Assembly: GCA_965206595.1 (NCBI GenBank)
Contig: OZ242214.1
Coordinates: forward strand, 2,624,001 to 2,688,000
Direction: 5' to 3'
DNA: 64,000 nt
Origin: Candidatus Latescibacterota bacterium
Lineage (GTDB): Bacteria; Latescibacterota; UBA2968; UBA8231
In this document: positions 10,477 through 49,335 of the stretch, piece after piece
Numbering within the stretch: the stretch's first letter is position 1
Layout of the letters: the number at the start of each line of letters is the position of its first letter
Made by a program: the position numbers and the translations under genes
Notes under the pieces: model-generated
What the model was told of the DNA's origin: nothing
Databases searched by the model: none
The model's input: only the letters and a program-made list of their open reading frames with translations

Positions 10477-10743
10477 ATGAACGCACGCCGACACCGATCC
10501 TCCATTCTCCGCCGCCCGCGGATTCCCGGGGCGGCTGCTGCTTGCGGGCTCTTCGCCGCCGGCATCCTCCTGGCCCCGGGTACCGCGGCGGCCGCGGAGG
10601 AAACCGGCTTCATCCTCAACACCTTCTCGTTCCTCGTCTGGGGAGCCCTGGTGATGTGGATGTGCGCCGGCTTCACCATGCTCGAGGCCGGATCGGTGCG
10701 CTCCAAGAACGCCTCGATGATCTGCCTGAAGAACATCGGGTAG
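10477..10743 (+). pseudogene. amtB: Ammonium transporter N-terminal fragment, truncated by transposon end
   Basis: LVMWMCAGFTMLEAGSVRSKNASMICLKN; the stop codon lies inside the TIR that starts at 10739. Confidence 0.88.
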
Positions 10744-10787
10744 TGTGTCAATCTGAAATAAATGCTTACCCAATCCAGTGAACAAAA

Positions 10788-10816
10788 TTGACTAATAATC
10801 TGTATAAGCGTATGTT
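10788..10816 (+). promoter_or_regulatory. Sigma70-type promoter
   Basis: TTGACT-17 nt-TATGTT; predicted start site ~10823-10824 coincides with the 5' end of a long RNA stem. Confidence 0.6.
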
Positions 10817-10823
10817 CTCATTC

Positions 10824-10961
10824 GGGACAATGGCCGTTTTCGAAAACCCGACTTGGTCGGGTGCAGTGGGGAATACGATACCTGTTGGTACCGGACCAGA
10901 ACATCGCGTAACCGGAGCCAAGGGAATACCCATAGAACAGCCGGTAAACGGCCGTTGTTCC
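10824..10961 (+). ncRNA. Candidate structured ncRNA (four-way junction)
   Basis: 16-bp closing stem 10824-10839/10946-10961 (two G-U); hairpins at 10846-10862, 10874-10910 and 10911-10945. Confidence 0.55.
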
Positions 10962-11034
10962 AGCGCCCGGCCTGTCTCATGCGGAGACAGCCGCCATACC
11001 TCCCACTTGGGACTGGGGGGAAGGGGACAACGAA

Positions 11035-11601
11035 ATGAGGCGCATAATTGCAGTAGTGTTCGGATTGGCACTATGGGGATGTGGCGATCAGACCCTATCT
11101 CCGGTAGCGCCGAAGCTTGTAGCAGAGGGAGATTCAACGGCAACAGATGCAGGAAACAATGCGGCACAGTGCGTCGTCGTAAATATTCAGGGCGACAACA
11201 TCCAAGTTCACGGAGCCTCGGATGTGAACATCGATACGGTAGCCGTGTCCACGGTAACGGACACCGTCGTAGTCCAAGCAGGGTTTTCGATGTTGTTGTT
11301 GGAGTTCCAGGGCTACAATGACAACAGTCTGGACTGGGTCTCCAATAGAGAAGGGTGGACTTACTGGGATGAGAGAATCTCGGAAGAGTCCGTACGTGGC
11401 GTGTTTATGGCTACTACCGAATGGCTCGAAGCCCCGCCTGCAGATTGGACGCCGTTCGATTCCTTTCCAGATGTGCAGGAAGAACATGAATTGACTGTTG
11501 GGGATGGTTACATCTTCGTCAAAGACCCCCAACAGGAATTTCAGCGTTACAGCGAAGGCAGCACGAGGATGGGTTACTATTTGGGGATTGTGCTATTTTA
11601 G
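11035..11601 (+). CDS. Hypothetical lipoprotein (transposon cargo)
   Basis: MRRIIAVVFGLALWGC lipobox. Confidence 0.7.
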   Translation: MRRIIAVVFGLALWGCGDQTLSPVAPKLVAEGDSTATDAGNNAAQCVVVNIQGDNIQVHGASDVNIDTVAVSTVTDTVVVQAGFSMLLLEFQGYNDNSLDWVSNREGWTYWDERISEESVRGVFMATTEWLEAPPADWTPFDSFPDVQEEHELTVGDGYIFVKDPQQEFQRYSEGSTRMGYYLGIVLF

Positions 11602-11612
11602 TAGGCAATGTC

Positions 11613-11657
11613 TAAGGTGCTTGCAGGGCAACGGTCTTTCCTCCTGCAAGCACCTTA
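11613..11657. repeat. Perfect 15-bp inverted repeat
   Basis: TAAGGTGCTTGCAGG (11613-11627) / CCTGCAAGCACCTTA (11643-11657), 15-nt spacer, abutting AAGGAG RBS. Confidence 0.85.
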
Positions 11658-11676
11658 AAAAGGAGAAAAGCAAACC

Positions 11677-11901
11677 ATGCCTAAGGGACCGAATGGACAA
11701 ACAAGGCCAGCAGGGGTCACTCAGTGTGCCGTGCACGTGGCCAGGATTGCCATTGGCGAAATCGAGGACACTGGTTACAAGCATCCTGTCCAAGCAGAGA
11801 ATGGAAGCAAGGGCGGGAAGGCTCGTGCTTCCATTCTGACGCCTGAGCGGCGTAGGGAAATTGCCAAGGCTGCTGCTGAAGCTCGATGGAAGACAACTTA
11901 G
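11677..11901 (+). CDS. Small basic protein of the type commonly found beside IS1-family transposases
   Basis: RBS AAGGAG; GSKGGKARASILTPERRREIAKAAAEARW motif. Confidence 0.75.
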   Translation: MPKGPNGQTRPAGVTQCAVHVARIAIGEIEDTGYKHPVQAENGSKGGKARASILTPERRREIAKAAAEARWKTT

Positions 11902-11904
11902 TTT

Positions 11905-12234
11905 GTGATTAATGAGGAAGGAAAAGAACGACAATTGATTTACGCCATTATTTCCCTCGACAACGAGAAATCAGAAGAAATCCATGAAGCAATTGCCAGC
12001 ATTAAATCGACTATCTCAGCTGAAACCGCAACAAAAAAATTCCGCCAAGTACAAAGCATTTATCAGCCTAATGACTTGCGTCATATCAGCTTTATAGCAT
12101 TTTCCGGCAGCGTAAATGAACTGTGCGACTTGCTTGGACTAATTGAAATAAAGCACCTTGCAGTTGCCTTAAGTCATATCGGAGGCAGGGGGTCAACCGA
12201 ATTGGTTAATTGGATAAAGGCATATAATGGCTGA
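11905..12234 (+). CDS. Hypothetical protein (cargo)
   Basis: Open AT-rich ORF packed between neighbours. Confidence 0.55.
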   Translation: MINEEGKERQLIYAIISLDNEKSEEIHEAIASIKSTISAETATKKFRQVQSIYQPNDLRHISFIAFSGSVNELCDLLGLIEIKHLAVALSHIGGRGSTELVNWIKAYNG

Positions 12235-12505
12235 CGGACAGGAGTTTGGTGGGGGGACAAAGAAGCTTACTGAAGGCGGAAGGGTCAATATAGAACTTAT
12301 TGAGCATCGGGTAAATGAAATCGCTAACGACACAAAACAGCAAGGAAAAGAAATCAATTCGATCAATATAATTGTCACAGAGATTAAGACGGGGATGATT
12401 ACGAGAAAGGAGATTTTTACAACTGGAGTTATCATTATGGCAAGTCTTTTGATCGCTGTTTTTGCAGCGTTCGTTGCCATTTTCTTTCAGAAAATAACCG
12501 CATAA
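12227..12505 (+). CDS. Hypothetical protein with coiled-coil-like segment and C-terminal TM helix
   Basis: Overlaps upstream stop; hydrophobic GVIIMASLLIAVFAAFVAIFF tail. Confidence 0.6.
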   Translation: MADGQEFGGGTKKLTEGGRVNIELIEHRVNEIANDTKQQGKEINSINIIVTEIKTGMITRKEIFTTGVIIMASLLIAVFAAFVAIFFQKITA

Positions 12506-12508
12506 CCC

Positions 12509-13414
12509 TCACGAAAACACCAAATCCTCGTCGTTGTAATCTCTTTCTCGCTTCTTGTATTTCTTCGGACGCTTTGGCTTCGGCGTCCGCTTGTCGATCA
12601 GCCCCACAATCCATTCCAGGCTCTTCTCTTCCTTGGTCAGCCCCGCTGCAACTGCTGGTGTGGTTTCAAGAGTCATGTGCGGCCGTACCCAGTTGTAGTA
12701 GGTGAAGAATAGGTGGAGCATATACCTGTGGTTCTCAAGTTTCTTTGAGAACCCGTTTGTCTTTCGTGTATAGCGGCGCATACCCATACGCATGGTAAGG
12801 TTCATGCGCTCAACGTATGATGTGCCCCCTTCTTCGCTGTCGCCGATAACGATCACCTTTTCGGTTTCCGTTACGGTGGAGTTGCTATATCCTGCTCCAT
12901 CGTCGTACCCGTACGACTTCACAAGTTGGGTATAGTTGACGCGGTTCCCGAATGTACTATGGACAGCCTCGGGGTAAGCGCCAAAGGCATCGGATGTGAT
13001 TTGGACCTTGGGTTTTCGGGGCAGGATGATCTTCCCCTTCAACTTACCCATGAAGCGTTTGGCCGTTGTCAGGTTCCTGCCACCAACTTCCCAAGCAATC
13101 ATCAACTTGGTGTCGGGATCGAGTGCCGTCCATGTCCAAATGCTTCCAGCCTGAGAAGGCGCGGCTTGCGCTTGCGGGACATTCTTCTCTTTGGCATGGA
13201 GAAATGACCATATTTCATCCAATTCTACGCGCGCACACCTGATTCGGCGTGCATGCACTGCCTCATAGATGCTGCAAGCCTTCCCCGCATCTACGAGCAG
13301 TTTTACCACCGAATTGACAGCACAATCAGCCGACCTGGATATGGAGCGGATCGATGCACCTTCTACCAGCATGGAGAGGATGGTAACTCGTTTATCTATT
13401 GACAGTTGTTTCAT
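12509..13414 (-). CDS. IS1-family DDE transposase
   Basis: N-terminal HTH (EGASIRSISR), VELDEIWSF, WTALD, ITSD, TSYVERMNLTMRMGMRRYTRKTNGFSKK; ATG 13414 after AAGGAG. Confidence 0.88.
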   Translation of the reverse strand: MKQLSIDKRVTILSMLVEGASIRSISRSADCAVNSVVKLLVDAGKACSIYEAVHARRIRCARVELDEIWSFLHAKEKNVPQAQAAPSQAGSIWTWTALDPDTKLMIAWEVGGRNLTTAKRFMGKLKGKIILPRKPKVQITSDAFGAYPEAVHSTFGNRVNYTQLVKSYGYDDGAGYSNSTVTETEKVIVIGDSEEGGTSYVERMNLTMRMGMRRYTRKTNGFSKKLENHRYMLHLFFTYYNWVRPHMTLETTPAVAAGLTKEEKSLEWIVGLIDKRTPKPKRPKKYKKRERDYNDEDLVFS

Positions 13415-13492
13415 TTCGTTGCTCCTTGACGTTAGTGAACAAAAAGGATACATTTATACACTATCAAAGGCCGAGGCATAGAAATGCCTCGT

Positions 13493-13584
13493 TGGCGGCG
13501 AGGGTGGGATTCGAACCCACGATGCCTCTCCCGAGACATGCCTGATTATAAGTCAGGTGCGTTTATCCACTCCGCCACCTCGCC
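13493..13584 (-). tRNA. tRNA with UAU anticodon (reads Ile AUA) on a serine-type class II body
   Basis: GGCGAGG/CCTCGCC acceptor stem, G73, encoded CCA, anticodon arm CCTGA-CTTATAA-TCAGG, 7-bp variable arm ATGTCTC-GGGA-GAGGCAT, T arm GTGGG-TTCGAAT-CCCAC. Confidence 0.93.
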
Positions 13585-13625
13585 CTTTGTCCCGCCGATT
13601 GCAGTCGGCGGTGATTCTTCCTGCT

Positions 13626-13657
13626 ACGGCGTCCCGCCAATCTCGGCGGGACGCCGT
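13626..13657. repeat. Perfect 13-bp hairpin in the tRNA leader region
   Basis: ACGGCGTCCCGCC-AATCTC-GGCGGGACGCCGT; a second hairpin CCGCCGA-TTGCAG-TCGGCGG lies at ~13592-13611. Confidence 0.8.
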
Positions 13658-13750
13658 TCTGTTTTTACCTGAACATAAATATACGAAATTTTCTGCTTAG
13701 CCGGAAGGGATTTCTCCCCAGGTTGGTTTACATAATGTGTCGATCTGGAC

Positions 13751-13789
13751 AAAAAAGAACCCGGCTCTTCACTGAGAGTCGGGTTCTTG
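13751..13789 (-). terminator. Rho-independent terminator of the SLATT-like gene
   Basis: AAGAACCCGACTCT/AGAGCCGGGTTCTT stem followed by a T run on the minus strand, just after the stop at 13808. Confidence 0.7.
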
Positions 13790-13807
13790 CGAGTGGAAGC
13801 AAGGATT

Positions 13808-14332
13808 TTAGACTGACTGACTTTCCTGTGCAACAAGAGTGTGAGGTCGGATGTCCCATAGCTGCTTGAATAGCCTTTGGTACCAACTCACCTTGGGAAA
13901 CTCACTTGGGTCGTTGCCCTGCGCTCGCATCATTTCAATATGACAGACTATATCCAGCACACGGAGTGGCTGAGGCTCCCTTGACTCGATGGCCAGCCGT
14001 TGTGCTGTGATGTCGGCCAGGAACCCTTGCAGATCGTCATCCTGCAAGTTTCTGCTTCTTTCCATCTGTTGTTGAAGTTGAATGAAGCCCTGCTTGAGTT
14101 CTCCGTGCAGCAAGGCTTTTTCGTTTACCCTGAAGACGAGCATGAATCCTAAAAGAGCAGCACTTGCCACAGAAATCGCATGGTGGCCTTCTATTACGGC
14201 ATAGATAGACAGCATAAAGGCGCCAAATAGAAACCAGTTATGCGCGGCCCTGAGAAAGGATTCGCGGTACGTATGATACCGAATAGATCGGCAGATGCCG
14301 AAATGGAGATTGTGGTAAACTGTGTCAGTCAT
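13808..14332 (-). CDS. SLATT-like two-TM protein
   Basis: RSIRYH..R..F, two TM helices, EKALLH..LK..F..L helical C-terminus; ATG at 14332. Confidence 0.6.
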   Translation of the reverse strand: MTDTVYHNLHFGICRSIRYHTYRESFLRAAHNWFLFGAFMLSIYAVIEGHHAISVASAALLGFMLVFRVNEKALLHGELKQGFIQLQQQMERSRNLQDDDLQGFLADITAQRLAIESREPQPLRVLDIVCHIEMMRAQGNDPSEFPKVSWYQRLFKQLWDIRPHTLVAQESQSV

Positions 14333-14513
14333 TTCCCTTCTTTTTTGGTGGGGGAGCCGGAGGTAATGTGTCGGAGATTGGCTCGGGGGCAATGTCGTCC
14401 CTAACTGCTCTCTTTTCTTGTTCCTCCGTGAGGATTTTTCTTTCTGTATCTGGCCGAGAAGGTGCAGGCTGCGTATCGGGTTTGGGTTCGGATGATCTGC
14501 GCTTGGATGCCAT
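14325..14513 (-). CDS. Small Pro/Lys-rich peptide overlapping the start of the SLATT-like gene
   Basis: 62 aa ending PPAPPPKKKGND; stop overlaps downstream start. Confidence 0.5.
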   Translation of the reverse strand: MASKRRSSEPKPDTQPAPSRPDTERKILTEEQEKRAVRDDIAPEPISDTLPPAPPPKKKGND

Positions 14514-14754
14514 TTCCCTTTTTCCTTAGTTCAATGACTGCTGAGACTGTTCACCCGGAAAATACTGAAAGCCTGCAACGGTGCAAAGAAGTTTCCTCTC
14601 CCCAGTCCCCCAAGGGGATTATTGGAGGGGTTAGCCCTCAATTCTGGGTGGGCGATCCGTCACCAGAAATGGTGACAGAATTTCAGACTGATACACTACC
14701 CCGCATTCTTGGTCAGCACCTGCACCTCATCTTACGGACCTTCTCAACATCCTT

Positions 14755-15132
14755 GGTGGGAAGGAATCGAACAAGCATCAGGACAAGAAGCTGAACGCCG
14801 GACGCGGGACCGTCGGCAAGCAGGCGGTCGTCGGGATCCGCAATCGCAAGACGAAGGAGATCCGGGCGGAGCTGGTCGGCGATACCAAGGCCGACACCCT
14901 GCAGAGCTTCGCGGCCGATTTCGTCGAGCAGGAAGCCGTCAAGTACACGGACGAATCACCGTCCTACGGGGGCATGAAGAACCACGCCAGCGTTAGCCAT
15001 TCCACCGGTGAGTACGTTCGCGAGATGGCCCACATCAACGGGATGGAGTCCTTCTGGGCCACGTTGAAGCGAGGCTACGCCGGAACCTTCCACCGTCGGC
15101 CGGCGAATTCATTAACGGACTTAATCCAGTAG
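14755..15132 (+). pseudogene. IS1595-family transposase internal fragment
   Basis: Not in the ORF track; frame from 14755 reads GGKESNKHQDKKLNAGRGTVGKQAVVG...YTDE...VSHSTGEYVREMAHINGMESFWATLKRG. Confidence 0.85.
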
Positions 15133-16184: not shown

Positions 16185-17095
16185 TTCGGAAGCCTATCGC
16201 ACAACCAAGCGCGTGCGCCGGCCCGAGGGGCAGGGGCTGAACGATCCCTACGTCAGATTCTTCCGCATGGCGGAACGGCGCATCGCCGAGAAGACGGGCC
16301 AAGGCGTGGTCTGTTTCATCTCCAACTATATCTGGCTCGACGGGCTGTCCTTCACCGGGATGCGGGAGCGCTACCTCGAAGCGTTCGACGCCATCCGCGT
16401 CGACTGCCTGAACGGCGACAAGTACAAGACCGGCAAAGTGGCGCCTGACGGCTCCCCGGACCCGAGCATCTTCTCCACCAAAGGCGATCCAGTCGGTATT
16501 CAAGTCGGAACTGCGATTACGACGCTGGTACGCAAAGCCGATCACGCCCCGGCCACCGAGATCGGCTTTCGCCATCTCTGGGGACAGGCCAAGCCTGCGG
16601 AGTTGACGGCGACAGCGGAGAAGGAACCGGACGCGCTCTACGACTCCATCGAGCCAGTCTTGCCGCTTGGTTTGCCGTTCGCACCAACTGCTGCAAGCGA
16701 GGATTGGTTCGGCTGGCCGGCGTTGCCAGATCTGTTCCCGGTTTCGTTTCCGGGCGTCAAAACCAGCCGCGACGGATTCCTTGTCGATACCGATCTGGAC
16801 CGCCTCAAGGCGCGCATTACCGAATACTTCGACGAAACTCTGAGCCACCATGAGATCGCCCGGCGCTACCCGGCGGTGATGAAGAGCACGGGACTATTTA
16901 ACGCCCGTGCGGTGCGCGATGCGCTGCTAGAACGGGGTGGACCGAATCGATTCTGGATTCATCCGCTTCGCCTATAGGCCGTTCGACAATCGCTGGCTCT
17001 ATTGGGAAGGGGAGAGCGCCCTGCTTGACCGCCCCCGCCTCGACTATCAACCGCATGTGTTCGGGGGGAATTTGTGGCTGTCTGCCGCCGAATCG
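16185..17095 (+). pseudogene. Type ISP-like restriction-modification enzyme fragment (MTase C-part/specificity domain)
   Basis: LNDPYVRFFR.AERRI, GVVCFISN..WLDG.SF.GMR, GIQVGTAI, YRPFD.RWLYW; frameshift ~16945; truncated at both ends. Confidence 0.8.
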
Positions 17096-17226
17096 GCCCC
17101 TCAATACGTCCGTCCGAAGCCGAAACGATGGCCGACTCCAGAGTTTCAGGACGGTGGTTCACGAACTCCTGGATCCACCCGGAGGCTTCCGCGTTCTCCG
17201 CGTTTCTGGGGGTACCTGGACATTAC

Positions 17227-17480
17227 CTACTCCCCATCCTGTCCGCGGGGAAGTCGTCCGCAAACAAGGAAGGAAAAGTCGGGCAGGTTCACCCAATCGT
17301 CCCGATTGAGATCAAATTGCCGGGGGGTGGTCCCGAAGGCGTCGGCGAATAGGAAGAAGTCGGCCAAATCCACATGGCCATCCTGGTTGAAGTCCGCCTG
17401 GGTCGGCCAAGTAAGCCCGGATTCTATCCCGTCCGTCACGGTGGCCACGTAGCCCCACTGGGCCAGAACATACTCCGGTC
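17227..17480 (-). pseudogene. Dockerin/EF-hand-like C-terminal remnant of a secreted protein
   Basis: ADFNQDGHVDLADFFLFADAFG...FDLNRDDWVNLPDF. Confidence 0.6.
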
Positions 17481-18354: not shown

Positions 18355-19730
18355 CCGGACCCTGCCCCGTTTCCACACCCCGTTCATCGAACCCAGCGGG
18401 CGGGTTTCCCGCACTGGGCTCTCGGACGAGATCATGCCTTCGCCCACGGAAAGCGGGTCGTGCGCGGTCCAAGGCGAGTCAGCCCGTGGTCTTGCCACAG
18501 GTACCGGTCCGGGAAGCGCACGTATTTCCCGCCTCCCACCTTGTGCTTACGACACAGCCACTGGCGCAACCGCCGGGTCGCGTGCCGGTCCACCGCGGCG
18601 TAGGCCGGGCTCACTTGGCCCAGGATGAAGTAGTTCGCCCACCCGGTCATGAGCCGGTTGAGGCGACCTACCACCACCTCCGGGGCCAGCAGTCCGGATC
18701 CCCGCGCGGTCAGCTCGCTGAGCCGGCGGCAGAGGCTTCGGACGCTCGCCGCGCTCGGGCGCGTGCCCAAGTAGGCCCGACCCGTGTCCCGGCGATAGAT
18801 GCGTCCGATCCGGTAGCCGAGGAACTCCATCGCCTCCTCCGGCACCCGGTAGCATCGGGTTTTCTCGGTGTTTATCGGCAGTCTCAGTTGCGCCATGAGC
18901 CGCTCGACCGCCGCCCGCATCGTGGCGGACGGGGCTTGGCCGAGCGCCCGGACGTCATCGGCGTACACGACGATCTCCGTCTGGAAGCGCCGGGCATAGC
19001 CCCGCACCTTCCAGCCGAGAATGAAGCGACGCAGGTAGATGTTGCTGAGCAGCGGAAAGATCGGCGCCCCCTGCGGGGTCCCTTGGCGCTCTCGACGCGC
19101 CCGGTTCGTGCGGCGGGTGCCGCCTTCCCCGTCGTCTTCCTCTACCGCCATCTCCAACCACGCCTTGATCCAGCCCAGCAGGCGCCCGTCGCTGAGGCGG
19201 CGGGCCAGGGACTTCATCAATTCCGCGTGGGGGATCTGGCCGAAGTAGTCCGACAGATCCGCGTCGACCACCTCCCGGTGGCCCGTGTTCAGCAGCCGAT
19301 GCACGCGCTGAACGGCGTCCAGCGCGCTGCGGCCCGGTCGATAGGCATACTGTCCGGGGGCAGGTCCGCTTCGAAAATCGGCGACAACACCATCATCGGC
19401 GCCGTCTGCGCTACCCGATCCCGGAGACAAGGGATGCCCAAGGGCCGGTACTTCCCACGTTGCTTCTTCGGAATCAGGACCTGCCGTACCGCCTGCGGCC
19501 GGTAGGTCCCTTCCTTCAGGTCCCGCGCCCGTTCCCCAAGCCACCGCTCCACTCCGTACGACTCGACGTCCGCTACCGTCTTGCCGTCCACCCGGCGGCG
19601 CCGCCATTACCGCGGACCTCCTGCCAGGCGACGGCCAGTACATCGGCGCGCCACACCTTGTCGCACAGCGAGTAGAATCGGAAGCCGGGAGCTTCCTTCG
19701 CTTTGGCATGTAGCGTCGTCTGGAAGCGTG
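18355..19730 (-). mobile_element. Degenerate group II intron: frameshifted RT/maturase plus domain V and partial domain VI
   Basis: AKAKEAPGFRFYSLCDKV, RPLGIPCLRDRVAQ, GTPQG, YADD, GWANYF in shifting frames; DV GAGCCCAGTGCGGGAAACCCGCCCGCTGGGTTC at ~18389-18421. Confidence 0.88.
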
Positions 19731-19731
19731 A

Positions 19732-19800
19732 TAGCCGGCGTAGTCCATTTTATCCCGGTTGTTGCGGGCGTAGCCCAGTTCGGTGGTCGCCTGGGGATGG
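19732..19800 (-). mobile_element. Short transposase-like remnant (ISKra4/ISLre2-like)
   Basis: ELGYARNNRDKMDYAGY abutting the truncated intron. Confidence 0.4.
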
Positions 19801-20330
19801 CGCGGTTGACCAGGTCGGGAGACTATGAGACAGATCGTTCGACACCTCGACATACTTCGGACCCTGCAAGCCCAGCGCCACGGTATGAATTTGGAGGAGG
19901 TCGGGTTTCTGCTCGACCAAACCCGGCGGGACGACCAGCACGTCTACTACCAGCTACAGAAAGAGGCGGGGATGCCGCTGAACTTTCCTGTCATGGTCGC
20001 GTCGATGCGCCCACGATGACATCGCCACTTCCACCAGTTGCGGCGCACGTTCAGGACCGACTTCATCGTCAAGCGCAACCTGCGCCCCCCAAATCGAAGT
20101 AGACCTGGCTCGAGGAGCTAACGACCACAAAGGAGCTTACCTGCCTTGACAGAGGGCTAAGAAGGTGCCTCCTTTCCCCAATATACCGGTCGGGTCTAAA
20201 GGGCTTCGGTCAAGCCGGGAACGCCGATGCAGGCTTGGAAGCTTTGTTGCAGGTGTGGGCGATACGGCCGTTTACGTCGCGGCGATCTAGGCGGACGACC
20301 TCGCCGCCGCCAGCGTAGGATCATGCTCTT

Positions 20331-21163: not shown

Positions 21164-21502
21164 TTGGAACTCGCTTTCGAATCAAGGCAGCTCCGTTTGA
21201 TCTGTGAGAACGAAGCTTTTGCTAAGGAGCATCTTGGACTTGAGGTCGCTGCAGTTCTCAAACATCGCTTAGCGGACCTACGTGCTGCTAGTTCCATTGC
21301 TGACCTTATGGTGGGAAATCCTCGTCGACTTGCAACTGGAGCCCACAACTATTTGGCAGTGGACCTATGCCAAGGGTATCACATCCGTCTCACTCCGAAT
21401 CACCCCAAGAATCCGGTAAGCGTTACGGATGACCTTGACTGGAAAAAGGTTACCCGGATCAGGATAACTCACATACAGAGAGGGGATCATGACCAATCCT
21501 GA
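21164..21502 (+). CDS. HigB-like (RelE-fold) toxin
   Basis: LAFESRQLRLICE...RLADLRAA...DWKKVTRIRI; overlaps downstream antitoxin. Confidence 0.75.
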   Translation: MELAFESRQLRLICENEAFAKEHLGLEVAAVLKHRLADLRAASSIADLMVGNPRRLATGAHNYLAVDLCQGYHIRLTPNHPKNPVSVTDDLDWKKVTRIRITHIQRGDHDQS

Positions 21503-22604
21503 AGGATTCCGGCCTGATTGGATCTCTGCACCAGGGGATACCATTTTAGACATTCTGGAGGATCGGGAGATTTCACAGGAATCGTTTGGGAAGAGTATGG
21601 GCATCTCTAATTTGGAGACAAATTACCTTCTCAGCGGCCGCTCTACGGTAACAATGGCGATTGCTCGTCGGCTCACGAGAATACTCGGAGCTTCTGTAGA
21701 ATTCTGGATTACCCGCGATTTCCAATTTCGGCAAGATGCCAAACCCATAGAGGATGAGGAAGAAAATTGGCTTCGGCAACTTCCAGTGGGAGACATGATC
21801 AAGTTTGGATGGCTAGAACCGCCACCTCATCCATCAGAAGAATTCGAGGCGTGCAAAGCATTCTTCGCGGTGTCTAGTGTCCGTGAATGGCACCAGTATT
21901 ATGGAAGCCCCAGAGAAATGGCGTCCTATAGATCTTCGCCTTCCTTTGAGTCGCACCAAGGAGCGTTGGCAGCTTGGCTTAGGCAAGGCGAAATCCTGGC
22001 TACCAAGATTAACTGCCAGAAGTGGCACGCGGATAGATTCCAGAAGTCCTTAGCCAGAATTCGTGTGCTTACGCGCCAAAAAGACCCGAGTCGGTTTGTC
22101 CCACAGTTGCAGGAAGCGTGTTCGGAAAATGGAGTAGCCACGGTAATCGTTAGGTCGCCCAGTGGTTGCCGGGCAAGTGGTGCTACCAGATTCTTATCTC
22201 GAAACAAAGCTATTCTCCAACTCAGTTTTCGTTACCTAACGGACGATCAATTCTGGTTTACTTTTTTTCACGAGGCAGGTCATCTCCTGCTGCACGGGGA
22301 GAGGCGGTTCTTCTCAGCAACACTAGGAGACGAGAAACCTTGGATCTTAGAAGGTTTCGAGATGCCAGTCGCTGCGGGAGAAGAAGAAGAAGAAGAAGCA
22401 AATCAATTTGCCGCCGACAATTTAATTCCTTCGGAATTCCAGAGAAACCTTCTCTCGCTTCCTCCCGAGTCGAAAACAGTGCTCCGATTTGCCCGTCGCG
22501 TGGGGGTATCCAGCGGAATCATAGTAGGACAATTGCAGCATCACGGCCGAATCGGCTACGACCAGATGAACAGGCTCAAGCGGCGATTTGTATGGCAGGA
22601 TTGA
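21489..22604 (+). CDS. HigA-like XRE antitoxin fused to an ImmA/IrrE metallopeptidase domain
   Basis: SAPGDTILDILE HTH; DQFWFTFFHEAGHLLLH (HExxH); EEEANQFA. Confidence 0.88.
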   Translation: MTNPEGFRPDWISAPGDTILDILEDREISQESFGKSMGISNLETNYLLSGRSTVTMAIARRLTRILGASVEFWITRDFQFRQDAKPIEDEEENWLRQLPVGDMIKFGWLEPPPHPSEEFEACKAFFAVSSVREWHQYYGSPREMASYRSSPSFESHQGALAAWLRQGEILATKINCQKWHADRFQKSLARIRVLTRQKDPSRFVPQLQEACSENGVATVIVRSPSGCRASGATRFLSRNKAILQLSFRYLTDDQFWFTFFHEAGHLLLHGERRFFSATLGDEKPWILEGFEMPVAAGEEEEEEANQFAADNLIPSEFQRNLLSLPPESKTVLRFARRVGVSSGIIVGQLQHHGRIGYDQMNRLKRRFVWQD

Positions 22605-22605
22605 A

Positions 22606-23532
22606 CTAGCTGCGGAAGGGGATGAATCTGTGAGGGCTCTTCTGCCAGTTACAGAGAGCGTCCTCCAAGACCTGCATCCCGAGATTCAACTCGGACCCTA
22701 ATTCGACCAGCCACTGGTTGATTTGGGCTGGTGTTGCAGGGGTTCCGAACAAGAGACGGGCGCCCCGGATCGGGCCAGTCGAATTCTGAATGTACGGGGA
22801 GTCCGCCTCAACATTGGCTAGTCCTAACTTGCCTAACATGGTCAAATAGTCGAATCGAGCGGTCCTACCGAAACTAGCGATTTGCTCCATGCTGTGGTAA
22901 AGCTCACGGAAGGCCACCCGTGGAGACCCACGGGCATTCTGGAGGACTTGGTTCATTAGTCCCTCGTGGGTTCTGGGAGGCCCAACCCACTGAACATATG
23001 TTTGAACGGCGGCGCCAGTTCCGGTGGGGGAGTATGCATCGAGGCTTTGATACTTTCGATGGTTGCCAAACCCACCGGAGATTCTCAATGCATCTTGGTG
23101 GGAGGCTAACCACGCTCGAAAGCGGGCTGGATCGGCACTTGTGGTAGCCCAATCCCATCTGTGAGGTCCCCCAAGAGCGCCGTATACTTCGCGCGCATAC
23201 CGCCAGCCGCCTCGTTTATGTTTTCCGAAATGGACGAGGAAAAACACCATCCAGAAGGCTTCCTCCGTTTGGCCTTGGCGGTGAAAAACGATTGCGGCCC
23301 TCAGAGGGTCAAAATAGCCAGGATTAGAGGGTTCTGAACGACGTTGGGAAATGTCCCTTGTTCTGAGGACCGACACGAATCGGACGCGCCTTGTGCTCTC
23401 GATGACCTGGGCGACAAAGGATTCACGATGCGCGAGGTCTGCCAAGCCTAGAAGTTGGCGGCTATGCCGGTGAAACGCAGCTAACTGGTGGGAAAGTCGC
23501 TGCGCTGCGTGGCGGTCACGGGGCCTAATCAT
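22606..23532 (-). CDS. Alpha-glutamyl/putrescinyl thymine pyrophosphorylase clade 3-like protein
   Basis: FDPLRAA, FGNHRKYQSL, FGRTARFDYL, GPIRGARLLFG, LEDALCNWQKS; ATG 23532 overlaps upstream stop. Confidence 0.75.
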   Translation of the reverse strand: MIRPRDRHAAQRLSHQLAAFHRHSRQLLGLADLAHRESFVAQVIESTRRVRFVSVLRTRDISQRRSEPSNPGYFDPLRAAIVFHRQGQTEEAFWMVFFLVHFGKHKRGGWRYAREVYGALGGPHRWDWATTSADPARFRAWLASHQDALRISGGFGNHRKYQSLDAYSPTGTGAAVQTYVQWVGPPRTHEGLMNQVLQNARGSPRVAFRELYHSMEQIASFGRTARFDYLTMLGKLGLANVEADSPYIQNSTGPIRGARLLFGTPATPAQINQWLVELGSELNLGMQVLEDALCNWQKSPHRFIPFRS

Positions 23533-24356
23533 TCCCTTTCCTCGATCATCCGGGCGATCCAATCGCCGATTGCGAGAATGACCTCCTTTGTGACGCCAAA
23601 ACTGCTCTGAAGGTTATGGTTAAAGCCGAGAATAGAAAGATCGCGGTCAAGGGGAACCCCGCAAACGTCACTTATAACGCCTGTATAAGCGATACCTTTC
23701 ACCTTGTGACCTGAAGCTCTTCCTAAAAACCAATCTGGGACGACTTCTGCTGTCAGGCAAGACCCCGAAAGAGATTGGAAACCCCTTACGACGGAAGTGC
23801 CATTTAGGATTAGAGTCCGAACCGAGGAATCCCGAAGAATAGTAGCCAGGGTGTCTCCAGCTAGGGTAAGGAGTAGGGAGCGCTGTTGGTTAGGGAGATC
23901 CGCCCATTTGCTTAGTGTTGCATAGGGTACTAGATCTAGATGGCAAGCGTTAAATAGAGGTGGATAGTAGGAGACTCTAGCACCCCTAAGTATTGAGTCC
24001 AGCTTTTTGAACCAGACATCATAAGGATTGGAGGCAAAATAAGATCGGTAAGACTCAAGAATCGATTCAAGATGCCTAGCGTCGGCATCAGCCCAAGTCT
24101 GTAACCCCAGGGAGGCAAGGGTTGGAAATCTGCGGAGTTCTCCCTTCAACTCATTACCTGAGGCATCCATGAATTCCCGGGAACTAGGATTAATACCTAT
24201 AGTTGCTAGCTGGGGAGTGGACAAATCTCCGAAGGAAATAACCGGACAACTCCAAGGTATGATGCCGGCCTGAGTAGTCGTAGGCCTGTCGAGGTAATCT
24301 ATCAACTTGGCTGCGGCCGAAAGCACCCCATGAGGAGTCCGCCTAGGGGAGATCAT
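23529..24356 (-). CDS. Hypothetical protein, probable uracil-DNA-glycosylase-like fold
   Basis: PVISFGD...LATIGINPS..EF, HLDLVPYAT..W, LILNG. Confidence 0.55.
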   Translation of the reverse strand: MISPRRTPHGVLSAAAKLIDYLDRPTTTQAGIIPWSCPVISFGDLSTPQLATIGINPSSREFMDASGNELKGELRRFPTLASLGLQTWADADARHLESILESYRSYFASNPYDVWFKKLDSILRGARVSYYPPLFNACHLDLVPYATLSKWADLPNQQRSLLLTLAGDTLATILRDSSVRTLILNGTSVVRGFQSLSGSCLTAEVVPDWFLGRASGHKVKGIAYTGVISDVCGVPLDRDLSILGFNHNLQSSFGVTKEVILAIGDWIARMIEERE

Positions 24357-25084
24357 GTTAAGCGATTCATGTTAAGCGGTTATGGAGTCTGGTAATGTAA
24401 GGGTGGTAGACCTCTGAAGACATTTCCCCTTTTAGGTGTGAAATCTTCTTAAGATTATGGTCTTTGTAAGCTCGAAAGACCAAGAGCAGCCTAATGAGAT
24501 CGGACCAGTAAGAGGGTATAGTGTCAAGGGTGTTTGAGTCAAATTGCCCTTTAATCCTGATAGCGCGTTCTGCGGCGAGCACGAGGTCAATTGCTGCCTG
24601 GGGGTTTCCTTCGGGCATAGGCTCCATCACGTTCTGGGTAGGTTGCCAGCCCTCTTGGAGGAACCTTGTGGCCATTTCCTCATTTTTTGTGTACAAGTGG
24701 AGACTGCCGACCATGTGTTTATATCTCCCGAGGTTTGCAGAGAGAGTGCGGGCGATGATTTCCTGGATCATGGTAAAACAGAAAATGTCGTGAGGTAAAC
24801 CAACGTAAGCGTCGTTAGACCTCATGTGGGTAATCATCTGAAGGTGGTTGCGTCGGAGCATGAATTGGAGAGTACAGGTACACGGAACGTCCTTGTGTGG
24901 TACCAAAAGGTCATTTGCATCGAACAATTGAACTACCGCTTGTCGGGATTGGGGTTTCCGACGAAGAATAGTAACTACATTCTCAAACTGATTGAGCCCG
25001 CGCCAGTTGAATAGTCTTGGGCCGTAGCCACCAAAGAGCGTGGTTCCTTCTGCGTGCAATTTATAATCGGGGATGTAGTAGGAT

Positions 25085-26944
25085 CCTTTGTTATTCATTC
25101 AACCCGCGCATAAGCGGACATAGGCGCTTCCGAGACCCCTTTGCTTAGCCTCAGAGGCTTGCGTCCCTTCTATAGTCGGCTTTTTGGGTAGAGCCGTCTC
25201 CTTATCTCTACCGACCTTGTTGAAATTGTACGCGCCTTCTCGAAGACGCTTGCCTTTGCGAGCCCATCATCCCGACCGACCCGGCCTGCGCTTACGCCAT
25301 CGCCGCGTCCACCGGTTTGAGCGTGGCCAGAAATCTCCACAGACGATCCCAGGCAGCCGCCGTCCCTTGGGTCAGGATGACGCCCACCCTGCGCCCATGC
25401 AAGGTGACGCGGGACGGCAGGCGCAGGTAGCGCCGTCGAAAACTGTCCAGGCTCAGGGCCGTCGTCGAGCGTCCGTATGTGCGGGGCCGCCCGCGTCGGG
25501 CCTCGGCGCGTTCGGCGGCCTGGCGGCCCAGGTGAAGCAGGTTGTAGGCCAGCAGGTTCAAGGTCAGAAGCGCCTGGTTGGCAGCGAAGGCATCCCGGGA
25601 CGGGGTGCGCTGACGCGGCTCTCGACCCCGGTAGTGTTGCTTGCGACGGGTGGTAGAGGAGAGCTGAGGCTGGAGGGTGGAGCTCAACTCGCCGAGCATG
25701 CGCTCGAAAAGGCCGCGCTGACGATAAAAGGCGACCAGGTCGCGGCCGCTCATCGTCTGGGGACTCTGGTCGGTGATCAGGAAGAAGTGGCGGGCGATGG
25801 GCAGCTCTTCCGTCTCGGAAGGGACCAGGACCAACACCACCCGCCGGGGCTGCGCCCAGGACCTGGCTTGATAGCGCAGCTCGCGACAGCGAAAACCCTC
25901 TTCCCGCAGCTCTTCCGGGTGCTGCGCCAGCTCCTGCTGATAGCCTTCCACCCAGGCACGAGCCAGCTCCTCCAGGCGCGCATTCTTCTTGATGCGCGCC
26001 ACGTACGAGGTGTCGGCCCGCGCTTCCAGCTCACTCAGGAAAGACCCGCTCACCGAGGCCGCGTCGAAGCGCAGGATGAGGCGCCGGGCCAGATGCGACT
26101 GAATCCAGTCCAAGCGCTTGCCGAGAGCCTCTGAGGCGCCCTCATGGGCGTGCACGTTGCCCGGCCGCAGCACGGCACCGAAGAAATCGCCCGTCTGCGC
26201 CGAGCCGAGGAGCAGGGGATGGTACCCCGAGGCGTGGAAGTAGCCGTTGTATTCGACCCCCGCCTGGTGCCCGTGCGCCGGCATCGGCAGGGCATCCATG
26301 TCGACGGCCAACTCCTCGTATTTCATCCGTCCTTCCAGCAGCCGGCAACGAGACCGGGCGCTGCGCAGGACGGCTTCCTCCAACACCTCGCGGTTATAGG
26401 CAGTCGAGGCTTGCTCGAGCAGGCGCGACAGCGTCGGCTGACTGGCCAGTCCCTGCGGCCGGTCTTCGTCGCCGCTGCGCAACGGCGCCTGCCCTTTGCG
26501 ATCGCTGACCGCCAGACGCAGGATCGGATCTTGGCGCAACGCGTCGGCGTCGTCGGCGTGGGTCCAGCCCTGTGCCAGCAGCACGATCTGTGTGCGCAGC
26601 AGCTCCGGCAGCGGGTGCGTGATCTGGTCTTGGGTACGGAGATCCTCGAAGTGGGCGTCGACCCAATCCAGAACCCGGCTGTGTTCGAGCAGTTGACGCA
26701 ACATCAGCGCACCGGTGTCGCTGCCAAGGTGGGTGGGGCGGGCTTCGATGTGGATGGAGCGGTTGAAAGACGGCTGAATCGGCCCGGCTTGCTCGGACTC
26801 GGTGTGTGACGGTAATTCACCCATTGGGTGTCCTACTGTGTGATGGGTTCAAAGGGCGATACTGCCTTGTGTTTCCCTCTGAAATCTAAGCATGGGAGGC
26901 ACCCAGTACAGCCCTCTCCACTAAAATTCCATGAATAACAAGGG
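25085..26944 (-). mobile_element. IS1380-family element, copy 1 (1860 bp, intact)
   Basis: TIRs CCTTTGTTATTCAT / ATGAATAACAAGGG; 5-bp TSD AGGAT (25080-25084, 26945-26949). Confidence 0.92.
25292..26824 (-). CDS. IS1380-family transposase
   Basis: GSDTGALMLR, LASQPTLSRL, VDMD, HGHQ...YNGYF...YHPL, LRFDA, FYRQRG..E. Confidence 0.9.
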   Translation of the reverse strand: MGELPSHTESEQAGPIQPSFNRSIHIEARPTHLGSDTGALMLRQLLEHSRVLDWVDAHFEDLRTQDQITHPLPELLRTQIVLLAQGWTHADDADALRQDPILRLAVSDRKGQAPLRSGDEDRPQGLASQPTLSRLLEQASTAYNREVLEEAVLRSARSRCRLLEGRMKYEELAVDMDALPMPAHGHQAGVEYNGYFHASGYHPLLLGSAQTGDFFGAVLRPGNVHAHEGASEALGKRLDWIQSHLARRLILRFDAASVSGSFLSELEARADTSYVARIKKNARLEELARAWVEGYQQELAQHPEELREEGFRCRELRYQARSWAQPRRVVLVLVPSETEELPIARHFFLITDQSPQTMSGRDLVAFYRQRGLFERMLGELSSTLQPQLSSTTRRKQHYRGREPRQRTPSRDAFAANQALLTLNLLAYNLLHLGRQAAERAEARRGRPRTYGRSTTALSLDSFRRRYLRLPSRVTLHGRRVGVILTQGTAAAWDRLWRFLATLKPVDAAMA

Positions 26945-33587: not shown

Positions 33588-34076
33588 TGATGTGGATTCC
33601 GGAATTCGGACGGTCACGTTAGTCGGACAGTCACGTTAGGTGGATCCAACCCTCTATGGAAGGAATGGAGACATGGGAAAACGACGTAGCTTCTCCGCCC
33701 AATTCAAGGCCAAAGTCGCCTTGGAGGCCCTGTCTATCTGCACGACTTCCAGGATGGACGGCAGGCGCGTCAGATGATCGCTGACTGGCTTTCGCTAATA
33801 CAACGAAGAACGACCTCACTCCAGCTTGGCCGGGGACTGGACGCGATGGAGGCATACACCCGGCGCCGGGCGGCATTAACTTCAGAAGGGACGGGCGTGT
33901 GACAATTTGCCAAGGGCTGGTGGGTTATCTTGCGCCAGCAAAAAAACGGGTATCCCGCAGAGTCGGAAAGGAGGTCCCAGGGGAAACCCGGGAACAAGAA
34001 GAACAGGGCAGCAATCAACTCAATGAGTCCACCATAACTCTGCTGTTCGGCTGTCCAAAGAATGGGGTTCACCTCA
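33588..34076 (+). mobile_element. Internally deleted IS3-family element (MITE-like)
   Basis: TG...CA imperfect ends; orfA start MGKRRSFSAQFKAKVALEAL; orfB tail YNEERPHSSL; 17-bp tandem duplication 33606-33639. Confidence 0.65.
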
Positions 34077-34089
34077 CCCGAAAGTGTTT

Positions 34090-34253
34090 CATTTCTTTCG
34101 CGGCTCCATACCGCGGACCTACGCCTCCCCCTGCCAGCGCATGCGCCTGCACCGTTACCTGCGCACGCGCATGACTCGGGGCTGTCGTGGTTCGCTACAC
34201 CTTTGACACAGATGACTTTCACATCTTACACCTCGCCGGTTTAGCCGGCGCAC
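34090..34253 (-). mobile_element. Group II intron 5' (domain I) remnant
   Basis: Begins GTGCG at 34253; GTGCGCCGGCTAAACCGGCGAGG...GGTGTAGCGAACCACGACAGCCCCGAGTCATGCG. Confidence 0.65.
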
Positions 34254-34263
34254 GGAGAAGTCC

Positions 34264-43742: not shown

Positions 43743-45500
43743 ATGGGTTTGGATACAGTAAGAGCGAATGAAAACATCCGCTTCGAGCCCGACGAGCGCC
43801 CTCCCCACTCGGTCGCGGCCGGGGTCGGATTTCAGGCCGCGGTCGTCGTCCTGGCGCCGGTGGTGCTCAGTGCCGTCATAATTGCCCGGGCAGCCAACCA
43901 GCCGGCGAGCTACCTGACCTGGGTCGCCTTTGCGGCGCTGATGGTCAGCGGCGTGAGCACGGTGCTGCAAGCGGTCCGGATCGGGCGTATCGGGGCGGGG
44001 CACGTGCTCATCATGGGCACCTCCGGAGCCTTCATCGCGGTCTGCATCACGGCGCTGGTGAAGGGCGGACCCTCCCTGATGGCGAGCCTCATCGTCGTTT
44101 CGTCGCTGTTTCAGTTTCTCCTGGCGGCGCGGCTGTCGCTGGTGCGCCGGATCATCACCCCGGTCGTCTCCGGCACGGTGATCATGCTGATCGCCGTCAC
44201 CGTCATGCCGGTGGTCTTCGACCTCCTGGGGGACGTTCCGGATGGCACGCCTGCGGTTGCGGCACCGGCCGCGGCCGCGGCTACCCTCGCCGCCCTTCTG
44301 GTTCTGGCGCTGCGCGCCCCGGTGGCCTGGCGCCTTTGGGCACCGCTGGTCGCCATCGCGGTCGGCTGCGCCGTCTCCGCCCCCTTGGGGCTGTACGACG
44401 TTCAGCCTGTAGTCGAAGCCGCCTGGATCGGCTTTCCCGACTACGCCTGGCCGGGACTGGACCTGTCCCTCAGCGCCGAGTTCTGGGCGCTGCTGCCGGC
44501 GTTCGTGGTCGTCACCATGGTAGGGGCGATCGAGACCATCGGCGACGGCGTCGCCATTCAACGGATCTCGCGACGCCGGCCGCGGGCTACCGATTTCCGC
44601 CTCGTCCAGGGCGCCCTCAACGCCGACGGGGTGGGCAATCTGCTCTCCGGGCTCGTCGGCACGCCCCCCAATACGACCTACTCCACCAGCATATCCCTCG
44701 CCGAGCTGACCGGTGTCGCCGCACGCCGGGTCGGGGTGTACATCGGCGTCCTCTTCGTGCTGCTGGCCTTGTCGCCCAAGGTGACGGCCCTCATCATCGC
44801 CATTCCCAACCCGGTGGGGACCGCCTACGTAACCCTGCTGATAGGCATCCTCTTCGTGCAGGGAATGAAGATCGTCGTCGGGGACGGCCTCGATCACCGC
44901 AAGGCCGCGGTGGTGGGCCTGTCTTTCTGGATCGGCGTCGGCTTCCAGAACCAGGTGATCTTCGCCGACCTGCTCGGCGACACCTTGGGCACCTTGCTAG
45001 GCAACGGCATGACCGCCGGGGGGATCGTGGCGATCGCGCTTACCGCCTTCCTGGAGCTGACGGCGCCCCGCAGCCGGCGCCTGAAGGTCGAGCTGGCCGC
45101 CTCGGCGCTGCCGGAGATCGACGCCTTCCTGCGCGCCTTCGCCGCCAGGGCCGGCTGGAAGGAGCCGTCGGAGGGGCGGCTGCGCTCCGCGGGAGAGGAG
45201 ACACTGGCGGTCCTGCTGCAGCAGTTCGAAGGGGAAGGGGCGGAGCCCGAGGGGCGGAGCCTGATCGTCACCGCCCGCCTGGCCGAGAAGGGTGTGGAGC
45301 TGGATTTCCTCGCCGCCTCGAGTGCCGAGAACCTCGAGGACCGGCTCGCCTACCTCAGCGAGCAGCCCGAGCGGGTCGACGAGCACGAGATCTCCTACCG
45401 CCTGTTGCGGCATTACGCCGCTTCGGTGCGGCACCAGAAATACCACGACGTCGACATCGTCTCGGTCCTGGTCGAGGAGGCGCCCGAGTCCCGCCTGTGA
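43743..45500 (+). CDS. NCS2 xanthine/uracil permease with an extra C-terminal HATPase-like domain
   Basis: GTSGAF, TPVVSGTVIMLI, ETIGD, GALNADG, PNTTYS; soluble ~140-aa tail. Confidence 0.85.
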   Translation: MGLDTVRANENIRFEPDERPPHSVAAGVGFQAAVVVLAPVVLSAVIIARAANQPASYLTWVAFAALMVSGVSTVLQAVRIGRIGAGHVLIMGTSGAFIAVCITALVKGGPSLMASLIVVSSLFQFLLAARLSLVRRIITPVVSGTVIMLIAVTVMPVVFDLLGDVPDGTPAVAAPAAAAATLAALLVLALRAPVAWRLWAPLVAIAVGCAVSAPLGLYDVQPVVEAAWIGFPDYAWPGLDLSLSAEFWALLPAFVVVTMVGAIETIGDGVAIQRISRRRPRATDFRLVQGALNADGVGNLLSGLVGTPPNTTYSTSISLAELTGVAARRVGVYIGVLFVLLALSPKVTALIIAIPNPVGTAYVTLLIGILFVQGMKIVVGDGLDHRKAAVVGLSFWIGVGFQNQVIFADLLGDTLGTLLGNGMTAGGIVAIALTAFLELTAPRSRRLKVELAASALPEIDAFLRAFAARAGWKEPSEGRLRSAGEETLAVLLQQFEGEGAEPEGRSLIVTARLAEKGVELDFLAASSAENLEDRLAYLSEQPERVDEHEISYRLLRHYAASVRHQKYHDVDIVSVLVEEAPESRL

Positions 45501-45577
45501 CACTCACGTCGCGTAAAGAGATTCGACGCCGGAGCGGTCGGGGCTCGGTTCGGAAGCGCCCGGGCTCCTACCTTCAG

Positions 45578-47436: not shown

Positions 47437-47498
47437 TTCAGACTGCCTGCCCCACTCCCACCATCTTTCGGCCAAAGCCGAAGGATCAGAACTGGAGG

Positions 47499-48644: not shown

Positions 48645-48729
48645 GACTTCTCCTTTCTCCCTTTATTTACTCTCCGGTCTTGCAGTCAACTCCCACCTGA
48701 ATGGATATCGTGCGGTTCTTCCTCATTCT

Positions 48730-49335
48730 TCAGATACCGAACTCAAATGAATTACCCAACGCACAGAGCCGTTCGACAAAATAACGAGCACTAGGGCAAT
48801 TGAGGTGCTGAGCCGCCCGTCTGACGTCAAACCCTTGATCGCGAATGAATTTTCTGGAAAAAATGAGTCGGTTTCTCCCTGGCCCTCTGCCTTTTGCGTC
48901 CCGGAGCTCCTTCAGCCGGTCCCAAGGCATTCCAGTTGCGGTTTCCGGGTCAACCTCACAGAAGGTGCTGTCTCCCAACCACTGCCGCATGGCCTTGGTA
49001 TCGGCGAGAAACCAGGATTCCATCGCCTTCTTCGCAATCGCGACCAGATCAATGCCCTGGGAACCAATGATTTTCTTGCGCGCTTGCACACATCGCGCAC
49101 AGGTCTCGGGATCGAGGTCGGCAAGCACAACCACCTTTTCCGGACTTGCCGTGTTCCTGAGATTCTTGACGAAGGTCCCGATGTTTCGACTACACATATT
49201 GCCATTGCCAGCCGCATCAACCACTGGATCGAGCACTTCAAGGTTGCATTCTTCACGCAGCCATTTTCGAAACAGTTCGCTTTCGACCAGTCGTTTTTCT
49301 GATGCCCCCTCCACCACGAACCCCACGGTCACCAT
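48730..49335 (-). CDS. DUF4276/TOPRIM-like protein
   Basis: GFVVEG.SE, VLADLD, MESWFLAD, C.S...F; overlaps ATPase stop. Confidence 0.7.
   Translation of the reverse strand: MVTVGFVVEGASEKRLVESELFRKWLREECNLEVLDPVVDAAGNGNMCSRNIGTFVKNLRNTASPEKVVVLADLDPETCARCVQARKKIIGSQGIDLVAIAKKAMESWFLADTKAMRQWLGDSTFCEVDPETATGMPWDRLKELRDAKGRGPGRNRLIFSRKFIRDQGFDVRRAAQHLNCPSARYFVERLCALGNSFEFGI

Follow-up and report, generated by a model that had tools for sequence, protein, structure and literature searches.

The 64-kb stretch of DNA analysed here (the window) carries a transposon unit at 10740-14699, the features of which are listed in Table 1. The initial annotation had placed the left end of a transposon at this position, and this was borne out by the 20-nt repeat found in inverted orientation at the other end, a pair for which 0 matches are expected (100 shuffles). 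To the left of the unit lies the 5' fragment of an ammonium-transporter (amt) gene. The intact amt gene is present in a same-genus genome, whose 95% identity to the window ends exactly at 10740, and amt contigs of other organisms part from the window at 10739/10740. Beyond 14699, the right flank holds part of an IS1595-type transposase gene. With the amt fragment and the IS1595-type fragment as flanks, no target-site duplication of the unit was found.

Table 1. Features of the transposon unit and of the structured domain near its left end (positions in the window)
Feature	Position	Strand	Basis or remark
Ammonium-transporter (amt) gene, 5' fragment, truncated at transposon end	10477-10740	+	Pfam Ammonium_transp positions 3-38 of 399 only
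Terminal inverted repeat, left end, 20 nt	10740-10759	+	Inverted match at other end
Sigma-70-like promoter, TTGACT-17-TATGTT	10788-10816	+	Predicted; 9/12 consensus matches
Structured domain, 138 nt, closed by 16-bp stem	10824-10961	+	Folding, pair probabilities, stem census
Inner hairpin P2, 7 bp, 3-nt loop	10846-10862	+	Probability about 0.6
Two-part direct repeat	10869-10939	+	GGGAATAC at 10869-10876 and 10922-10929; AGAACA after each, at 10898-10903 and 10934-10939
Hairpin after domain, without U-tract	10968-10993	+	Fold; no terminator call at site
Hairpin CCUCCCA/UGGGGGG, just 5' of Shine-Dalgarno-like GAAGGGGA (11021-11027)	10999-11020	+	Fold
Predicted lipoprotein, 188 aa, signal peptide and LWGC lipobox	11035-11601	+	Rare family
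p74, small protein, 74 aa	11677-11901	+	phrog_2384; tblastn matches in 15 related loci
Two overlapping small genes, 109 aa and 92 aa (C-terminal membrane helix)	11905-12505	+	Weak PHROG matches only
IS1-family DDE transposase, 314 aa	12509-13453	-	Pfam DDE_Tnp_IS1, 34.3 bits (cut-off 24.1)
tRNA, anticodon UAU, long variable arm, G73, encoded CCA	13493-13584	-	Rfam match and tRNA fold
Membrane protein, 194 aa	13808-14392	-	phrog_11791, E = 9.7e-25
Terminal inverted repeat, right end	14680-14699	-	2 mismatches to left repeat

The transposase, of which the genome contains one full copy, scored 69.8 bits against NCBIfam transpos_IS1, which is under the equivalog cut-off of 100. By its IS1-type DDE transposase and terminal inverted repeats, the element is classed as an IS1-family transporter insertion sequence. 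It lacks, besides the target duplication, the intact layout in which the 3' end of the transposase gene abuts one of the repeats. Unlike in the relatives described below, the transposase gene in the window is inverted, adjoins no repeat and lies 1.2-1.8 kb from either end; the unit may therefore be a fusion of two partial elements. Elsewhere in the same genome, solo repeat-like sites were seen at C1:435025, 1509063, 3569015 and 3973795, and a transposase fragment at about 3789845-3790148.

Where the lipoprotein gene begins was set by the conserved N-termini among its homologues. The family is tiny, with 3 close members among 5.8 billion clusters and 13 representatives among 1.84 billion. The three close homologues come from ENA contigs, and the alignment of the wider family is very diverse. 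The protein had no Pfam, PHROG, NCBIfam or PADLOC match, its predicted structure had a mean pLDDT of 49.2, and no loci of its relatives were found in the genome, viral or JGI metagenome collections.

The element also carries a serine-type tRNA gene with a UAU anticodon (Ile, AUA). The tRNA is 92 nt long and has a type-II body with a 7-bp variable arm and a 3-bp D stem. Host tRNA-Ser genes have G73 and an encoded CCA like the element tRNA, whereas the Leu and Tyr tRNAs of the host end in A73. In a plain alignment, the nearest host tRNAs were Ser(GGA) (67/92) and SeC (68/92). The element tRNA may read AUA as serine. According to Mukai et al., serine-type allo-tRNA(UAU) forms the most abundant group and is tied to transposable elements and toxin-antitoxin loci (PMC5389517). 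The element tRNA resembles this group as it is described there (PMC5389517); it folds 7/5, not 8/4 or 9/3. No similar tRNA was found in the related loci, and 4 ordinary tRNAs were present among all loci scanned. This tRNA(UAU) is a more curious item of the element than the structured domain discussed below.

Comparison with the same-genus genome showed that positions 10740-34253 of the window form a 23.5-kb mosaic island, in place of 8.0 kb that include the rest of amt. The left end of the transposon is the left edge of the island. Synteny is back at 34254, and a group II intron domain match (34063-34219, minus strand) adjoins this point; a second synteny break against the same genome lies at 45495-50812. 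Two ORFs at 16213-17452 (plus strand) have weak matches to the C-terminal domain of type ISP restriction enzymes and are probably fragments, and 18432-19853 (minus strand) is a gene for a group II intron reverse transcriptase/maturase. Three adjacent genes at 22606-25098 (minus strand) resemble a DNA thymidine hypermodification set, comprising an aGPT-Pplase3/amino acid:DNA transferase (E = 5e-96), a 275-aa protein and a thymidylate-synthase-like protein; an IrrE/M78 peptidase-type gene (21489-22604) adjoins them. Two 100% identical IS copies with a DDE_Tnp_1_4 transposase, at 25085-26146 and 45578-46638, lie about 20.5 kb apart in direct orientation.

IS1-family transporter insertion sequences with this well-kept 20-nt end, a conserved 74-aa gene and variable cargo proved to be widespread in metagenomes. 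The terminal 20-mer, with two positions left free, was found in 113 metagenome and 3 viral stretches, giving 116 ends with GTAGTGTCTCAGTCTGAAAT as the majority form. The first 60 nt inside these 116 ends comprise 94 distinct sequences. In addition, 11 genome loci encode transposases that are 28-52% identical to that of the window. Both sets, the 11 transposase loci (L017-L027) and the 116 terminal-repeat loci (L038-L153), were used as related loci. In 7 of the 11 transposase loci, similar repeats enclose units of 2.4-4.1 kb, with the 3' end of the transposase gene at one repeat and p74 and variable genes on the opposite side. Among these variable genes are peptidase-like ones and an antitoxin-like one with a Panacea domain; the latter, together with a small gene, is the counterpart of the position held by the 109- and 92-aa genes in the window. 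The one cargo gene common to this transposon and its relatives is p74. Because p74 and the transposase recur in the related loci (in 15 and 25, respectively) and the lipoprotein is in none of them, as is the case for the 109-, 92- and 194-aa proteins, the domain and the lipoprotein gene are assigned on this comparison to a variable cargo slot between transposon end and p74, and the domain is not a feature of the family. Since relatives hold other cargo genes in this slot, a leader found there is expected to be cargo-specific.

The domain lies in the 292-nt non-coding gap between the truncated amt gene and the lipoprotein gene. As had been claimed in the initial annotation, a TTGACT-17-TATGTT site precedes it and a long stem starts at the predicted +1. 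This +1 falls at 10823/10824, about 7 nt 3' of the promoter-like site, and is predicted from the consensus match only. The promoter was scored by sigma-70 rules, which may not fit the host lineage, and with 4 promoter-like sites in 2.1 kb against 1.9 +/- 1.3 in shuffles the site is not significant alone. The closing stem (10824-10839/10946-10961) was likewise found as described, with 16 unbroken pairs (14 Watson-Crick and 2 G-U) and pair probabilities of 0.81-1.0 in the thermodynamic ensemble. The minimum free energy (MFE) was -56.9 kcal/mol on the plus strand versus -52.4 on the minus strand, and both non-Watson-Crick pairs of the closing stem are G-U on the plus strand.

The interior of the domain did not conform to the four-way junction first proposed. 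The MFE structure is a three-way fold (-56.9 kcal/mol), and a forced four-way fold (-53.4 kcal/mol) is 3.5 kcal/mol worse. From the three stems that had been drawn inside the domain, the one at 10846-10862 was recovered (P2 in Table 1), whereas the stems at 10874-10910 and 10911-10945 had ensemble probabilities of 0.0 and 0.42, respectively. The interior as a whole is ill-defined: the MFE structure has a frequency of 0.005, competing folds have probabilities of 0.4-0.6, and the repeat-bearing part (10869-10939) folds ambiguously. The doubling of GGGAATAC noted earlier was found, and each copy is followed by AGAACA. The hairpin that had been placed after the domain is also present.

Folding of 10824-11070 showed that the domain and the two hairpins 3' of it form independently, the domain being the 5' end of a 211-nt leader. 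In this fold no alternative pairing of the domain with the downstream hairpins or the ribosome-binding site was seen. The second hairpin includes one U-G pair, and the Shine-Dalgarno-like stretch that follows it, 7 nt before the ATG, is mostly open (unpaired probability of 0.8-0.97 at most positions). The sole sigma-70-like site on the plus strand from the transposon end to the ATG (11035) is the one 5' of the domain, and no terminator-like site was predicted 3' of the domain. Four ORFs cross the region, none with a Pfam match at E <= 1.

The initial annotation had called the RNA undescribed, and as far as Rfam 15 is concerned this is correct. At gathering score, Rfam 15 (4227 models) gave no family match in the domain; its only matches in the 64-kb window were the tRNA and the group II intron domain, both elsewhere. 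In 10600-11200 at E <= 10 the only match was Yfr1 on the minus strand (17.8 bits versus a gathering score of 38), and no T-box, Y RNA, ribozyme or riboswitch model was among the matches. A tRNA-like or tmRNA-like fold of the domain was rejected, as ARAGORN found nothing, relaxed thresholds included. A T-box leader for the element's own tRNA was dismissed as well: the likeness was only a short one, and Rfam at E <= 10 gave no T-box match. The core motifs of integron attC sites were absent from the stem arms on reading. In titles and abstracts of the literature, no report was found of structured RNA in IS1-family cargo.

At the DNA level, the own genome yielded the domain itself and one 32-nt chance match in a coding region, 60 relatives yielded nothing beyond matches of <=26 nt at E >= 0.009, and plasmids and phages yielded no homologue of the domain. 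We also built a covariance model (R1), a single-sequence model with which distant relatives could be missed. In the own genome, the sole R1 match was the domain itself, at 180.5 bits. Across 151 genomes of the phylum the model gave, besides the domain itself, one 18-bit match that is rich in non-standard pairs and not credible, and in 5 + 151 + 151 genomes of lineages with related transposases it gave none. Altogether, about 450 other genomes were searched and no homologue of the domain was found. Of the motif patterns run against viral contigs, one hit 8 stretches, to none of which R1 matched, and another hit 0.

The related loci were searched in the same way. R1 had 0 matches in the 11 transposase loci and 0 in 83 of the 116 loci carrying the terminal repeat; the remaining 33 were covered by blastn-short only, which over the related transposase and terminal-repeat loci gave only chance matches of <=23 nt. 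Given this absence from 11 transposase and 83 repeat loci and the 94 distinct sequences inside 116 ends, the initial suggestion of a transposition regulator is not supported. A structured leader as a trait of the transposon family was rejected too: the 200 nt inside 91 distinct related ends fold near average (mean z about -0.4), and the few strong folds (3/88 at z <= -3) are unlike that of the domain. Among assembled contigs from sequencing runs, one 5524-nt contig (X1) is identical to 10719-14900. Two others (X4 and X5) contain a few identical pieces of 151-171 nt, none over 10794-10940, and X6 only conserved amt and tRNA pieces from other organisms; none of the four sequencing-run contig sets contained variants of the region. 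Going by these searches, the domain is an orphan singleton, a member of no defined family.

The best explanation, which we put forward tentatively, is that the domain acts in cis, as a structured leader at the very 5' end of the cargo operon (lipoprotein, p74, 109-aa and 92-aa genes). This reading is favoured because the stem starts at the predicted +1, no other promoter-like site on the plus strand precedes the ATG and there is no terminator-like site, and because the domain folds independently, its plus-strand fold is the stronger one, the G-U pairs are on the plus strand, z is -3.5 and there is no coding signal. A leader had been among the functions suggested initially, and it fits this anatomy. 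The operon would be carried by the IS1-family transporter insertion sequence and transcribed inward from the promoter-like site just inside the left end. With +1 at the first base of the 16-bp stem, the 5' end of the transcript would be fully base-paired. 5' stem-loops, for example that of the ompA leader, shield mRNA from 5'-end-dependent decay; a helix of 16-19 bp at the very 5' end, with no single-stranded tail, could shield the operon mRNA in the same manner. The long duplex might also be a site for double-strand processing or protein binding, and the repeated GGGAAUAC...AGAACA is a candidate protein contact. Structure, position, uniqueness and location in the variable slot were observed directly; the start of transcription, transcription itself and the stabilising role we infer. 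Against a leader, a branched domain of 138 nt is far more than a 5' stabiliser needs, and the promoter match is not significant alone.

Whether the fold exceeds chance was assessed in several ways. The fold of 10820-10995 had z = -3.50, with 0/200 shuffles as stable. After regression of MFE on GC content, 18 of 3650 138-nt windows (64-kb window, both strands) were as stable or more, a ranking in which the target was taken at its best boundaries and the other windows were not so cut; the windows as stable or more include a tRNA/terminator region and a group II intron. A census of the 7.05-Mb genome for uninterrupted 16-bp stems with <=2 wobble pairs, enclosing 60-230 nt, counted 59 (plus-strand rule) and 63 (minus-strand rule) comparable stems, about one per 58 kb or 1.1 per 64 kb; the closing stem of the domain is the sole one in the 64-kb window. 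The combined 8-mer and 6-mer repeat had a counterpart in 65 of 5000 dinucleotide shuffles, in a test that was post hoc. Outside the window, dense G + C palindromes of 16-19 bp with a spacing of about 65-135 nt were seen at G000:C1:6771774-6773065, which may be a repeat array.

The domain is only moderately more than chance. Three things taken together raise the case above noise: the stem starts at the predicted +1, the gap that holds it is non-coding, and it is on the same strand as the operon that follows. An incidental stable fold in the spacer between transposon end and first cargo gene, whether transcribed or not, with no selection for structure, is unlikely but has to be taken seriously. 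The frequency of comparable stems, at about one for each window of this size, the GC-adjusted rank, the ill-defined interior and the lack of a relative in any search all agree with it, and these same observations speak against the leader reading. The coincidence of the stem start with the predicted +1 is not accounted for by an incidental fold, nor is the location of the stem within one of the few non-coding gaps; the rarity of the repeat in shuffles and the z-score also run against it.

A second alternative keeps the RNA but detaches it from the operon, as a stand-alone, trans-acting small RNA of about 140-170 nt (regulator, sponge or antitoxin) that would be released when transcription terminates, or the RNA is processed, at the hairpin at 10968-10993. 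The promoter-like site of its own, the compact closed domain and the hairpin after it suit such an RNA, and IS-derived regulatory RNAs are known, among them the IS200 5' UTR and the ISPpu9 sRNAs (PMC5435999, PMC8450116). We nevertheless regard it as improbable, given that the hairpin has neither a U-tract nor a terminator call, that the domain is not conserved among related elements and that, in a crude test, the energies predicted for its pairing with the tRNA, or with the 5' regions of cargo and transposase genes, were no better than those of shuffled RNA.

There is also little to commend a DNA-level feature, in which a 138-bp miniature inverted-repeat element, or a relic recombination or protein-binding site, would have the RNA fold as a by-product. 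The 16-bp inverted repeat with its 106-bp spacer comes near the size of known miniature elements, and the region is a mosaic of mobile DNA. Yet the sequence is single-copy (near-matches of the two arms with 2 substitutions number 3 and 3 in the genome, against about 3.9 expected per arm), neither DNA search nor covariance model gave a further match in the genome, the flanks CTCATTC and AGCGCCC share nothing that could be a target-site duplication, and, read on the transcribed strand, both mismatches of the stem are G-U.

That the branched domain is a riboswitch-like sensor, binding a ligand or protein and controlling the lipoprotein operon, appears more doubtful still. It would explain a multi-stem domain in a 5' leader closed by a P1-like helix, with two hairpins, one with an anti-SD-like CCUCCC, between it and the ribosome-binding site. 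At 16-19 bp, however, the closing helix greatly exceeds a switching P1 in length and stability, and a switch is argued against because the domain folds alone, with no pairing to the downstream hairpins or the ribosome-binding site; the SD-like stretch is mostly open regardless. Neither an Rfam match nor a conserved family is at hand to define an aptamer. More speculative again, and quite improbable, is that a new class of mobile-element RNA is seen here for the first time: a scaffold that binds protein or RNA, with the repeated GGGAAUAC...AGAACA as its recognition site, which would act with other cargo (the serine-type tRNA with the Ile anticodon, or the small toxin-antitoxin-like genes) to control or buffer the effect of that cargo on the host. 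In a last reading, the RNA would serve a mobile-element enzyme as guide or template (retron msr-msd, IS110 bridge RNA or TnpB/IscB omega RNA), as suggested by its place beside a transposon end, by a promoter-like site of its own and by a long terminal duplex resembling retron a1/a2 pairing. This is barely credible and largely refuted because the partner enzyme is missing: the element encodes a DDE transposase of the IS1 family, the ORFs scanned in 10740-14699 included no reverse transcriptase, IS110-type recombinase or TnpB, the nearest reverse transcriptase (18432-19853) is of the group II intron maturase type, and related ends show no conservation of the domain.

If the domain is real, the leader reading would add one more transposon cargo operon with its own elaborate 5' RNA structure. 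The family around it, widespread in soil and water metagenomes and shuffling its cargo in a defined slot, would then be a natural test bed for the expression of cargo after capture. As it stands, the domain is a singleton with modest statistics that opens or closes no larger question; the analysis recasts a candidate four-way-junction RNA as an orphan leader and defines its context.

Structured leaders or leader-derived RNAs of insertion sequences are described for the 5' UTR of IS200 tnpA and for the 5' UTR of ISPpu9 with its sRNAs (PMC5435999, PMC8450116). With these, the domain shares a stable RNA structure just inside the transposon end and inward transcription from an element-borne promoter, which is predicted here. 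The known leaders are described as preceding the transposase gene and as conserved in every copy of the IS, whereas the domain precedes a cargo lipoprotein gene, points at the 3' end of the transposase gene and is absent from the related elements examined. Conservation at the same end in relatives, as expected of a regulatory leader of an IS family, was not seen.

The domain also resembles retron msr-msd RNA, in which the 5' and 3' ends form a long duplex around hairpins in an RNA of similar size. Terminal pairing is present in the form of the 16-bp stem, but a Pfam search of neighbouring ORFs showed no retron-type reverse transcriptase near the domain; the sole RVT_1 match among them, at 18432-19853, goes with a group II maturase domain. 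The enzyme needed by an IS110 bridge RNA or a TnpB/IscB omega RNA is not encoded in the element. Riboswitch aptamers are, like the domain, helix junctions closed by P1 in a 5' leader. The P1 of the domain, in contrast, is 16-19 bp long and has no switching partner, the domain belongs to no Rfam family, and the fold of 10824-11070 contained no expression platform competing with the closing helix. With miniature inverted-repeat elements the domain has in common a size of about 140 bp, 16-bp inverted repeats and the ability to fold if transcribed; it differs in being single copy, and neither multiple copies nor a target-site duplication were found. Finally, 5' stabilisers of the ompA type are simple hairpins, while the domain is a branched 138-nt structure with a repeated inner motif and a predicted start. 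What it shares with them is that its helix would begin at the first transcribed base, the feature that such stabilisers need.
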